Notes under the pieces: model-generated
What the model saw: only the letters and a program-made list of their open reading frames with translations
Told to the model about the DNA's origin: nothing
The model's database searches: none
Translations under genes and position numbers: made by a program
Source: Glaucostegus cemiculus
Taxonomy: Eukaryota
Reading direction: 5' to 3'
Assembly: GCA_976551045.1 (NCBI GenBank)
Contig: CDPCPM010000056.1
Span: 17,546,001 to 17,610,000, forward strand
DNA: 64,000 nt
Shown here: piece after piece, positions 2,170-58,600 of the stretch
Position numbering within the stretch: the stretch's first letter is position 1
How the letters are laid out: every line of letters begins with the position of its first letter

Positions 2170-2290
2170 AAGTATAGATGCTGGAAATATGCAATAAAAA
2201 CAGAAAATGCTGGAAACACTCAGCAGATCCGGCAGCATCTGTGTAAAGAGAAACAGAGTTAACATTTCAGGTTGAAAACCCTTCATTGAT
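2170..2290 (-). mobile_element. Penelope-like terminal repeat fragment with a degenerate hammerhead-like core
   Basis: The minus strand reads TCAATGAAGGGTTTTCAACCTGAAATGTTAAC...CAGATGCTGCC...CTGCTGAGTGTTTCCAGCATTTTCTG. Same motif family as the copies at 23.5, 26.9, 45.0, 52.2 and 58.5 kb. Confidence 0.6.
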
Positions 2291-14126: not shown

Positions 14127-14267
14127 AATATTTGGCTAAATACTCGGACACAAAAAAAAAGCCACGTAATACCCAGAAGAGAAGCGTCTCTCCAAGCAGT
14201 GACTCCACGGCGGGTTTTGGTTTGAGACCCCCTGACGGTATTTATCCGGCAGTTTAGTTTACCTCGA

Positions 14268-15338
14268 ATGTGCAATACCAATTATGACAAACAGAATTTC
14301 AAAAATCAATATCAGTCTTTTATGTCATTAAATAACAATGTGTGGTGCTCGAGTCATGCAATTTCAGTTCGGAACAACGATTTAACAAGATGTTGGGCAT
14401 TTTACTTTATAGGCTGTAATCATATTTCGCCATGTATGCGAATAAAGAGAATGTTTTCAAAACCAGTTAATAACATTGAACTGCGTTATAAAGCTGTGTT
14501 AAGAAGTGACTCTGTGCACGTTCTAGGGGGGGGGGGGGGTGCACAACGCCTGCGATGTTTACGGGCATCTCAAAGAGAACAAAATTACAAGGGTACACAT
14601 CAGGTACTGGAAAAGAGGGGAATTGGCGTTGCGCCTGAATCGGCAATGTGCTGCTCTTCGCGGCTTATCTTGCGGCCGTTCTGTTCCCAAACTTCAACTT
14701 TATATTTAGTGCCTTTAGGGCCCTGTGTCTGCGCACCAGGGGCGGAGATTGTGCCCGCGGCGCCTTCTCCCCGTCTCCCCGGGGTTGAGATAGCTCCTTC
14801 GATTAATAGATTTCCCTGCACTCATTTAATAAGGCATCGTCACCAATCGGTTGAGAGTTCACTGCCATTTGGTACCAGTGTGGTGAGCCAGGTGGTCGCA
14901 CCAGCGAGACAGATGCTGCTCTGGGACCATTTACCTCCCTGCAGAACCCTTCCTTTCCCGCTTTCCACCATCCCTTCTTCGAGCGGCCAGCGAAAAAGAA
15001 GCACTAGGGGAGTTGATGAGAGCCTCTGGGAGAGAGACAGGCAAGCCCTGGGCTATCGAACGACTGCTGAGAGTTCAGCCCAGCTATTTACATGGCTACT
15101 TGGGCCCAGCAAGAAACTCTTTATCGCAGACAGGGAAGCTTACAGCTGCGGCTTAAAATCTGCCCGCTCCAGAATGATCATGCTCTCTCCTGGGTTCTTT
15201 TTTGGACTGGGTGGGGGGAGGGGAGAGGAAGAAGAAAGACCCGCATTTGGGATGAGTTTAAATGACTCCCAGACTGTTCCGATCAGGAGTGACACCATTC
15301 TCGCTGGGATCAGACGAGTCCCCCAGGGCAGAATGTGA
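14268..15338 (+). CDS. Orphan 356-aa ORF, coding status unproven
   Basis: By far the longest ORF in the window. No recognisable domain, weak Kozak context, AATAAA at 15445-15450. Confidence 0.2.
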   Translation: MCNTNYDKQNFKNQYQSFMSLNNNVWCSSHAISVRNNDLTRCWAFYFIGCNHISPCMRIKRMFSKPVNNIELRYKAVLRSDSVHVLGGGGGAQRLRCLRASQREQNYKGTHQVLEKRGIGVAPESAMCCSSRLILRPFCSQTSTLYLVPLGPCVCAPGAEIVPAAPSPRLPGVEIAPSINRFPCTHLIRHRHQSVESSLPFGTSVVSQVVAPARQMLLWDHLPPCRTLPFPLSTIPSSSGQRKRSTRGVDESLWERDRQALGYRTTAESSAQLFTWLLGPSKKLFIADREAYSCGLKSARSRMIMLSPGFFFGLGGGRGEEEERPAFGMSLNDSQTVPIRSDTILAGIRRVPQGRM

Positions 15339-23480: not shown

Positions 23481-23670
23481 AAATGCTGAAAATCACTCAC
23501 TAGGCAAGGTAGCATCTGTGGAAAGAACAACCATTAACGTTTCAGGTCTGATCAAGAGCCTCGTATCTGAAATGTTCACGTTTTCTCGTCCCACAGAAGC
23601 TGCCTGGCCTGCTGAGTGTTTTCACCGTTTTGCTTTAATGTCCAGTATTTGCAGTTGGATTTTGCTATTT
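23481..23670. mobile_element. Penelope-derived fold-back element with a degenerate hammerhead-like core
   Basis: Inverted arms (GGCAAGGTAGCATCTGTGG / CCACAGAAGCTGCCTGGCC) enclose CTGATCA...GAAATGTT at 23548-23576. Confidence 0.6.
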
Positions 23671-26299: not shown

Positions 26300-27800
26300 T
26301 AATTCTATTAGATATTCAGTAAGGAGAACAAACCCAGGTTCTCTAATGTCTCCTAGTCTCTGAAATCCCTTGTGACTGGTATCATCCAGCAAAGTTCCTC
26401 TATACCCATCCACCCCTCCCCAACACCTTGATCCCTTCCTAATGTTGAACAGAATTGTACACAATCCTGCAAGTGAAGTCTAAATAATGATTTATAAAGT
26501 TTTGACATGTCTGCATTGTTTTTTTTAATGTTTGTTGCCCCTATTTACAAAGCCAGATACATCCATTTCCAAGATCTGCAGAATTTTTGATTTCCACTTG
26601 CTTTTGTAACTGCCTTATCAATGGCTATCGTTAAGAACCGATGAACAAACACTATTCCCTAGTCAATCCCTCTTCATGTCAAAGCTGCACTGCCCATATT
26701 TAAGAGCAGATCATTCATAGAGCAATGGTTCCTAATACAGCGAGTGATCTAAAAACATTCTTCTCTTAAGTCACCCTTCACCATTACTTTCGAGAAACAA
26801 AGGACTGCAGATGCTGGAATCTAGATGAAAAACACGATGATGCTGGAGGAACTCAGCAGGCCAGGCAGCAACCGTGGAGAAAAGCAGGTGGTCCTGAAGA
26901 AGGGACCTGACCTGTAACATTGACCGCTTGTTTTTCTCCACAGATGCTGCCTGGCCTGCAGAATTCCTCCAGCATCGTCGCGTTTTTCACCATTACTTCC
27001 GGCCACCTATCCATTACCCAATTACATGCACAAATAGTCATGTCGTTTTAGTATCATATGCTTCTATTTCCTGAAAGTCTGTCATATGGCACTTTATCAA
27101 ATACCTTTTGAAAGTCCATATATACATCTACTACATTCATCCACATTCTTTCATACATTGTCATCCAAGGGGTGAAAGAGCATAATTTTATTTTCAGCCT
27201 AACTTCAACTCATCCGCTAGGAGGAAGTTCACAACTAAACATCACAACAGTATCTGAAAAGTATGTTGCCTTTTGATCAATGGAGTGATGACCATAACCT
27301 TCAAAAAGCCATTGTAGAAGTCCGTCGTCCACTGAATTAGGCTACGGGTCGTGGATTTGACAAACGAATAATATAAATCTCTTGAGGGCCAAATGTAACC
27401 ACCTGTGAAGATACTGAAGGCAAATTCCATCAGTGCTATCACACACAGGAAAGACTTTTTGAGCACAGAATATGGCTACTTCCATAGGGCAAATGGTCAT
27501 CATTTTATCTTAAAGAACCCAGTCAGGTTAGTACGACACAAATCCGCCTTTAACAAATCTGTGCTGGTTGCCCATGCTTCTCCAGGTGAAAATTAATTTT
27601 GTCTTTGATGCTTGTTTCTAATTGTTTCCATAACAACAACGTTATTTTTTTTTGGCTTTTATTGCCAGATCTGTCCATTCCCTATCTGAACAGGGCGTGA
27701 ACATTTGCTTCCTCCAATCCTCTGCCACCACTGGTATATGAAAGTTGGAAGACTTTGTTCCACTCTAGAGTCGCTAATCCACCGAGGTAACGTCCCACCC
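26300..27800 (-). mobile_element. Degenerate CR1 ORF2 remnant, interrupted by the element at 26790-26990
   Basis: TTTATCAAATACCTTTTGAAAGTCCATATATACATC is the reverse complement of DVYMDFQKVFDK. Further RT-like segments nearby. Confidence 0.6.
26790..26989 (+). mobile_element. Young Penelope-derived hairpin element with a hammerhead-like core and a 13-bp flanking direct repeat
   Basis: Arms ~26826-26893 and 26922-26989 pair. Core CTGAAGA at 26894-26900. TTCACCATTACTT at 26777-26789 and 26986-26998. Confidence 0.8.
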
Positions 27801-44899: not shown

Positions 44900-45100
44900 T
44901 GCAATCTGCCCATCATCCTCACCCAGCCAGCCAGTCCCTGCTACACCCCTCCCCCTCACCTCTTTACACTGGATAGCACTCCTCAACACTCTCAGTCCTG
45001 ATGCAGGTTCTCGAACCGAAACATTGACCTTCCATCCAATTCCAGAGATGCTCCATGACCTGCTGAGTCCCTCCAGCAGTTTGTTCTTTTGCTTAAAGAT
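44900..45100 (+). mobile_element. Penelope-like terminal repeat with a hammerhead-like core
   Basis: GTC CTGATGC A GGTTC TC GAACC GAAAC ATT GAC at 44995-45028, then AGATGCT...CCTGCTGAGTCCCTCCAGCAGTTTG. Confidence 0.7.
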
Positions 45101-58324: not shown

Positions 58325-58600
58325 CTTCTTGATGTTACTTTGGGCTTCATGGGAATGATGGAAGAGACCAAAGATGGTGAAGTTGGAGAGGGATGCAGAA
58401 TTAAAATGAGAAGCAACTGGAAGCTCAGGGTCACCCTTGCAGACTCAATGAAGGTGCTCTGCAAAGTTCAGGTGAAGGATCTTGACCCAAAATGTCGATG
58501 GTCCATTTCCCTCTACAGATGCTGCCCGACCCGCTAAATTCCTCCAGCAGTTTGATTTTTTTTTGCTCCAGATTCCAGCAACTACAGTTTCTTCTGTCTC
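58325..58600. mobile_element. Penelope fragment: minus-strand endonuclease end joined to a plus-strand terminal repeat
   Basis: Minus ~58350-58465 translates FAEHLH*VCKGDPELPVASHFNSASLSNFTIFGLFH. Plus 58469-58600 carries CAGGTGAAGGATCTTGACCCAAAATGTCGA...CAGATGCTGCCCGACCCGCT. Confidence 0.7.

Follow-up and report, generated by a model that had tools for sequence, protein, structure and literature searches.

The question raised by this locus is whether a short hairpin with a hammerhead-like motif at its apex is a mobile unit in its own right or a remnant of the activity of another element. It lies in the window, by which we mean the whole stretch of 64,000 nucleotides of Glaucostegus cemiculus DNA that was analysed (contig CDPCPM010000056.1, positions 17,546,001 to 17,610,000). 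Two inverted arms of 68 nt each (26826-26893 and 26922-26989), which are 87% complementary, enclose a loop of 28 nt, and the RNA fold of the hairpin has a minimum free energy of -128.1 kcal/mol and a z-score of -13.4, with none of 200 shuffled sequences being equally stable. The initial annotation was right in describing arms of about 68 nt that run up to a hammerhead-like core, and the loop reads as it was given there. The element itself spans 26792-26989 (198 nt), as judged from the alignment of 30 fetched family loci, whose starts coincide with 26792 and whose ends lie near 26989. The interval 26777..26998 proposed earlier takes in target DNA, and a description in terms of the arms alone missed an unpaired tail of 34 nt (26792-26825) on the left arm. 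Likewise, the extended helix I of 12 bp that had been assigned to the ribozyme is really a duplex between the antisense and the sense arm, an arrangement made by the inversion. In the family numbering used throughout, position 0 is the first C of the ribozyme core and corresponds to 26894. The features of the locus are the following.

26781..26791, plus strand: target-site duplication, left copy; 11 nt are certain, and with ambiguous ends it may reach 16 nt (26777-26792)
26792..26893, minus strand: inverted, 5'-truncated pLTR copy (left arm), family +28 to +130
26792..26825, minus strand: 34-nt Penelope tail, unpaired and on the left arm only, with piles of loose ends at both edges
26891..26893, no strand: GTC microhomology of 3 nt at the head-to-head junction, which is the hammerhead's natural short helix I
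26891..26989, plus strand: sense pLTR copy (right arm), family -3 to +95, stopping at the short tail-less end
26894..26921, plus strand: decayed minimal type I hammerhead, predicted cut after 26921
26990..27000, plus strand: right copy of the target-site duplication, one mismatch to the left copy

Both limits of the tail recur outside this genome. Contigs of three other organisms break at 26792 with 946, 1025 and 851 loose ends and, as a second break point, at 26825/26826 with 178-249 loose ends each, so that both end points are family-wide. The left arm agrees with the family majority sequence at 100 of 102 nt and the right arm at 89 of 99 nt. Decay is therefore uneven between the arms (2/102 vs 10/99 changes, p 0.017), which may reflect chance, the use of a different template copy or repair that was uneven within the hairpin. 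A microRNA identity of the hairpin was considered and rejected: on the window stretch Rfam returned, for microRNA families, sub-threshold matches only, which lie far below the gathering scores and are generic hairpin matches. A weak imperfect inverted repeat at 26700-26769 (25-nt arms, 72%) just left of the insertion site is probably due to chance, and about 100 nt to the right of the element 27090-27140 is a short piece of another high-copy repeat, visible as a depth spike in the contigs of three organisms.

The origin of the arms becomes apparent from the copies elsewhere in the genome. A DNA search with the window element covered 2.85 Gb of the animal's own genome, with 40 of 2,478 candidates scored, and copies of the hairpin are 83-91% identical among the matches listed. 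Exact matches number 1,070 for the 32-nt intact core and 5,315 for a 34-nt stretch of the arm, with none for the reversed controls. Among the 50 core matches that head the list, 42 run at least 73 nt upstream into a common pyrimidine-rich region; five of 50 core-anchored copies reach the locus edge at 1.4-2.0 kb upstream, 16 have an adjacent inverted copy and four are short hairpins like the window copy. Over up to 2.8 kb, five longer stretches are 78-80% alike, and their reverse transcriptase (RT) and endonuclease frames are broken. The search with an RT fragment gave 151 matches (150 of 11,271 candidates scored) with a longest open frame of 525 aa, and no intact ORF is found among the 150 scored matches. 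The right-arm sequence of the window lies downstream in sense orientation in 18 of 20 RT loci, or in 17 of 19 when the query's own locus is set aside; one of the remaining loci contains only an upstream inverted copy of the arm and one lacks arm sequence. The earlier suggestion of a one-off inverted and truncated Penelope insertion thus holds with respect to Penelope and fails with respect to its being a one-off event, as such stubs recur.

At the protein level, Pfam RVT_1 is matched by three of eight fragments (best E 9.1e-6, another 1.5e-3) and GIY-YIG by two of eight (best E 1.2e-3), in each case below the curated cut-offs. Three of the eight fragments are without a match, an earlier set of six decayed fragments gave no relevant match, a PDB profile search with 13 RT fragments returned nothing and, when longer relatives of the endonuclease fragment were sought among proteins, only one was found. 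The family's protein pieces contain a CX4CxxC linker, a cysteine pair within the GIY-YIG box (IIYCxxC...LLYxGET), RT motifs and a DKG motif, and a CX2-5CxxC motif in the RT-EN linker is given as a mark of Neptune/Nematis in the section of PMC8557442 considered here. Judged from these sequences, the parent is an abundant, decayed EN+ Penelope-like element (PLE) that encodes an RT, a zinc-finger-like linker and a GIY-YIG endonuclease, and by its motifs, not by a tree, it looks like the Neptune/Nematis type.

In each of 20 loci the tail passes into a common 5' region, which in one case is connected to the ORF; this continuity is that of a permuted pLTR layout. Partial tandems are present in 15 of the 20 loci with 15 different re-entry points. 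In these loci (L256-L275, around 1500) the pLTR, the tail and 45-420 nt of the 5' region are followed by a jump whose landing point, upstream of a second hammerhead, varies; the partial tandems may be template jumps or raw material for retrozyme-like units. Three raw RNA-seq runs from one study of another organism contain family-like reads on both strands. Read starts and ends do not pile up in these three fragmented-library runs, and the reads are mostly at most 95% alike, sister families included. Divergent reads, sister families and fragmented libraries therefore make the RNA-seq data uninformative on cleavage or on the window locus. Diverged (72-76%) pLTR-like pieces lie in the window at 2176-2272 (minus strand), 44992-45078, 58474-58588 and 23591-23617 (all plus strand), the last being a 27-nt match beside a masked stretch, and they probably belong to older sister Penelope families. 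Two LINE-type RT-motif frames of 514 and 283 aa near family copies (L092:3669-5210, minus strand, and L095:1-849, plus strand) are unrelated neighbours, and the window contains a stop-free frame of 370 codons at 14226-15335 (plus strand).

The hairpin is flanked by a direct repeat of 16 nt with one mismatch (26777-26792 and 26986-27001). Its certain part of 11 nt can be extended by 4 nt shared with the right end of the element and by 1 nt at the left end; the target duplication of 13 bp put forward in the initial annotation is accordingly real, whereas its length is 11 nt with certainty and up to 16 nt with one mismatch. Comparable duplications were sought in a sample of hairpins collected with a pattern that leaves the junction free (160 found, 100 listed, 70 fetched and 58 analysed, 7 unmappable ones and 5 mapped from the other arm being left out). 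Duplications of at least 11 nt flank 32 of the 58, with a mode of 14 nt (14 nt in 11, 13 in 7 and 15 in 5 hairpins), and a similar test applied to 294 mismatched flank pairs was passed by none. In a set of 45 short arm-anchored insertions, duplications accompany 7 of the 19 that are inverted and 4 of the 26 that are not. The right junction is bridged by one record of another organism with 41 nt of arm and 129 nt of flank (10 differences in 170), so that at least one relative has the insertion at this site. Two records, each from a different organism, extend 25 and 28 nt into the left end, below the 31-nt rule, and the flanks differ by about 5-7% between the window and the other organisms' contigs. 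No empty site was found in these contigs among the 15 joints listed, a further 182 being unlisted, so that the duplication is deduced from the repeats and not from a pre-insertion allele.

The loop can be read as a hammerhead consisting of a CUGAAGA box (26894-26900), a bulged A (26901), stem II (26902-26913) and a damaged GAAA box (26914-26917). In the family the core comprises CUGAAGA, a bulged A, a stem II of 4-5 bp, GAAAC and a palindromic stem III junction, so that the CUGANGA and GAAA boxes, bulged base, stem II and palindromic 15.2-16.2 of a minimal hammerhead are present. That the family carries the full CUGANGA/GAAA core, as the ribozyme claim made earlier implied, is borne out by the 1,070 exact intact cores. 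The window core differs from that of the family at four positions (26905, 26913, 26915 and 26919) within 28 nt; the first A of GAAA is changed, and the GAAA box, stem II and the stem III palindrome are not intact. The first A of GAAA is essential for the hammerhead, and the ribozyme core of the window copy is probably catalytically dead. The family triplet is GUU in 104 of 139 motifs and AUU in 33, the latter being the result of CpG decay. Helix I consists of 3 bp followed by a mismatch and possibly one more pair, and in uninverted copies the core is flanked by only 3 bp (GTC/GAC).

The hammerhead motif is matched 146 times in 792 kb of fetched loci, which were chosen for the family, and not once in the shuffled loci. 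Fold prediction for the monomeric family core gives a structure other than the hammerhead, and the scan with hammerhead covariance models to which the initial annotation had looked for confirmation matched no Rfam hammerhead family up to E 10, whether the query was the window stretch or a copy with an intact core. Core and non-core positions are equally conserved in 38 copies (95.3% vs 94.6%, p 0.69); selection on the core is not visible in this set, as expected for neutral decay after insertion. For covariation across sister families the fetched loci contain too few sister motifs. The arm also belongs to a sister family whose hammerhead differs in its stem II loop and has GUC as its triplet; this sister family dominates the loose ends of the RNA runs. 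In locus L039, just downstream of 1500 on the minus strand, two hammerhead cores stand directly in tandem inside an inverted insertion, the second being joined a few bases past the predicted cut of the first in a natural dimer-like arrangement.

The hairpin very probably consists of two pLTR end pieces of this abundant Penelope-like element that were joined head to head between target-site duplications, and it is likely an old dead end. The element's own RT-endonuclease would have nicked both target strands about 14 nt apart, and each nick would have primed a cDNA on element RNA, one from the +131 start and one from +97. Both cDNAs would have halted after about 100 nt, at the hammerhead or at the nearby 5' end of the RNA; their 3' ends may then have annealed via the 3-nt GTC/GAC match of helix I and been repaired, and the inserted copy would have decayed neutrally thereafter. 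Fold-back of a single cDNA is excluded for the window copy, since the tail is found only in the left arm and the core only in the right arm. The two-cDNA model leaves the unequal decay of the arms unexplained, and the window junction class recurs more than most (5 of 58 hairpins), which counts against the reading as a dead-end by-product.

The points at which copying stopped can be read from 90 arms anchored at +51..+84, which represent 90 of 100 listed places on contigs 2-7 only; a few of them are the two arms of one insert, and ends beyond about 600 nt are censored. Thirty-six of the 5' ends fall at -12..+19 and five at -44..-13 (p 8e-7), corresponding to a stopping rate of about 0.017 per nt at -12..+19 vs 0.002-0.007 elsewhere. 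A second method, applied to 70 of the 90 arms, placed 41 ends at -11..+48 and 3 at -100..-12, and 18 of 20 hairpins in which the pattern left room for about 24 nt upstream begin at -7..0. Self-cleavage of the hammerhead would provide an RNA end of another kind: the left arm would be the 3' product (+28 to +131), joined to a cDNA of uncleaved RNA. We consider this very unlikely. The inner end of the left arm at +28 does coincide with the predicted cut within an ambiguity of 3 nt, and five of 58 hairpins end there, but the complementarity of helix I offers microhomology at exactly this point, so that the match needs no cleavage. The inner ends of inverted arms range from +10 to +39, and +25 (6 hairpins) and +15, +20 and +35 (5 each) are as common as +28. 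Only 2 of the 90 anchored arms have their 5' end at +26..+31, around the predicted cut, which also led us to reject the cleavage site as a general source of 5' ends. The GUU triplet of the family, combined with a helix I of 3 bp, likewise speaks against cleavage, as does the anole element, for which the experiments described in the cited part of PMC11167929 indicate that cleavage is not needed for insertion and that no reads end at the cut.

What is less ordinary about this family is that the hammerhead itself, rather than its cleavage site, is where 5' ends accumulate, just behind a TATA/initiator-like pair, namely TATATA at -35 and TCAGTC with its A at -4. A pair of this kind is described for the Adineta pLTR (PMC3846280, in part), while a TATA-less internal promoter is described for Drosophila Penelope (PMC2377424, in part). 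The bases upstream of the -3 edge also resemble a splice acceptor, and many of the ends lie in stem II and are open to stalling or palindrome ambiguity; for both reasons the start-site reading is a lead. A spliced leader exon behind the -3 edge was rejected as the flanks of 45 short insertions are without a common upstream sequence, the four matching flank pairs looking family-derived; a very short leader exon is a possible cause of the edge. Our literature search, with Repbase, Dfam and subscription papers outside its scope, found no report of hammerhead-centred 5'-end clustering or paired priming in PLEs.

The initial annotation had offered as its second choice a ribozyme-bearing, retrozyme-like family of mini-elements, and had expected copies throughout the genome to share one junction of arm and core. 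A hairpin that is a discrete, non-autonomous element (MITE/SINE-like or retrozyme-like), with the Penelope enzyme copying its transcript as one unit, would agree with the 30 best BLAST matches, which span most of the element at 85-91%, with the window junction class being present in 10 of 83 hairpins examined and with the target duplications carried by hairpin copies. However, a BLAST search with the window copy selects for its own junction, and in the junction-free sample the 58 hairpins have 44 distinct junction pairs. The ten same-junction copies (among 83 hairpins from the junction-free and BLAST sets) share 0.133 non-CpG variants per pair vs 0.131 for the other 73, and their tail is on the left arm in six, on the right in three and unclear in one. 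With no excess of common variants and the tail on either arm, the window junction therefore recurs through microhomology and not through descent. Furthermore, short hairpins are a minority of family copies (4 of 50), and all 30 fetched loci contain the core pattern a single time, the 15 partial tandems all having different re-entry points rather than fixed units; identity with a non-LTR retrozyme was rejected on the latter grounds. The idea of a discrete mini-element is thus very unlikely and largely refuted: such stubs form repeatedly.

Of 55 classifiable hairpins, 52 have a tail on one arm but not on the other, where independent ends would allow at most 50% (p 1e-13), and in 36 of 58 the tail is on the left arm alone and the core on the right arm alone. 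It is extremely unlikely that the inversion arose by self-priming of an antisense transcript, as proposed for head-to-head PLE inversions in the consulted part of PMC3846280 and in keeping with family-like RNA read from both strands in a related organism, or by later DNA rearrangement of a single stub, since a later rearrangement would neither leave a target-site duplication around both arms nor bring the outer ends of 52 in 55 hairpins to the two sites where RT starts, and antisense self-priming alone does not explain a tail on exactly one arm.

For the origin from two cDNAs, the one-sided tails and the clustering of 5' ends suggest paired run-off reverse transcription. We put forward, tentatively and at somewhat less than even likelihood, that the stubs record PLE copying in vivo: one enzyme complex would prime two cDNAs at both tail-bounding starts on opposite target strands, and, where it engages the 5'-terminal pLTR of the RNA, both cDNAs would end by run-off at a transcription start a short way upstream of the hammerhead (the A at -4, 31 nt behind the TATA box). 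Mostly tiny insertions would result, and the ribozyme helices would supply the microhomology that closes the hairpin. The anole element offers a precedent in that, according to the sections of PMC11167929 consulted, RT starts at two internal sites bounding the tail and the protein, a predicted dimer, cuts and extends both strands.

The window copy is one of thousands of decayed pLTR stubs, ordinary and of little importance in itself. For annotation it matters that such stubs resemble MITEs or microRNA precursors and should be labelled as Penelope. The family statistics are relevant to the question of how inverted and tailed PLE insertions arise, and strictly one-sided tails together with a 5'-end pile-up over the hammerhead lead to concrete predictions for the anole in vitro system and for 5' RACE.

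An inverted 5' copy, a one-sided tail and a pLTR hammerhead are PLE traits already published in the accounts cited here, each of which is drawn on in part. Insertions of EN+ PLEs are described as containing an inverted, 5'-truncated copy and a one-sided tail of 30-40 bp (PMC8557442; PMC3846280). Our family resembles these complex insertions, including that of Adineta Pen2a (PMC3846280), in its pLTR hammerhead, the inverted 5'-truncated copy at the 5' end, the tail of 30-40 bp at one end, the target duplication and the partial tandems, and it resembles Pen2a also in the TATA and initiator-like motifs in the pLTR. In contrast to canonical EN+ PLEs, both halves are cut to about 100 nt here and the whole insert is a hairpin of 198 nt; the target duplication is about 14 nt vs 8-10 nt in Adineta (PMC3846280). 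The coding part follows the Neptune/Nematis scheme of an RT and then a GIY-YIG with CCHH-type cysteines, a CX2-5CxxC linker and DKG (PMC8557442).

With the minimal hammerheads of metazoan PLEs (min-HHR, PMC4209133) the family core shares CUGANGA...GAAA, a bulged base before stem II, a G-C closing pair, a stem III without a loop, palindromic 15.2-16.2 and the occurrence mostly as single dispersed motifs with some pairs on opposite strands. It differs in its stem II of 4-5 bp vs 7-8, in a helix I of 3 bp plus mismatch vs 4-5 bp in minimal type I hammerheads and in its GUU triplet, and the window copy is in addition without GAAA box and palindrome. Non-LTR retrozymes are likewise non-coding, bear a type I hammerhead, derive from PLE pLTRs and occur in cartilaginous fish (bioRxiv 10.64898/2026.07.22.740005; PMC7229834); they are, however, head-to-tail tandem units each with a hammerhead (bioRxiv 10.64898/2026.07.22.740005), whereas the window holds a single head-to-head insert, which has just one core, itself broken, and lacks a fixed unit. 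The likeness to PAc, the Poseidon element of Anolis carolinensis (PMC11167929), extends to two internal end points that bound the tail downstream of the pLTR hammerhead and to the copying of uncleaved hammerhead into DNA. PAc belongs to the Poseidon clade and its ORF begins inside the hammerhead (PMC11167929), whereas the motifs of the present family are Neptune/Nematis-like and its ORF appears to begin after the tail.
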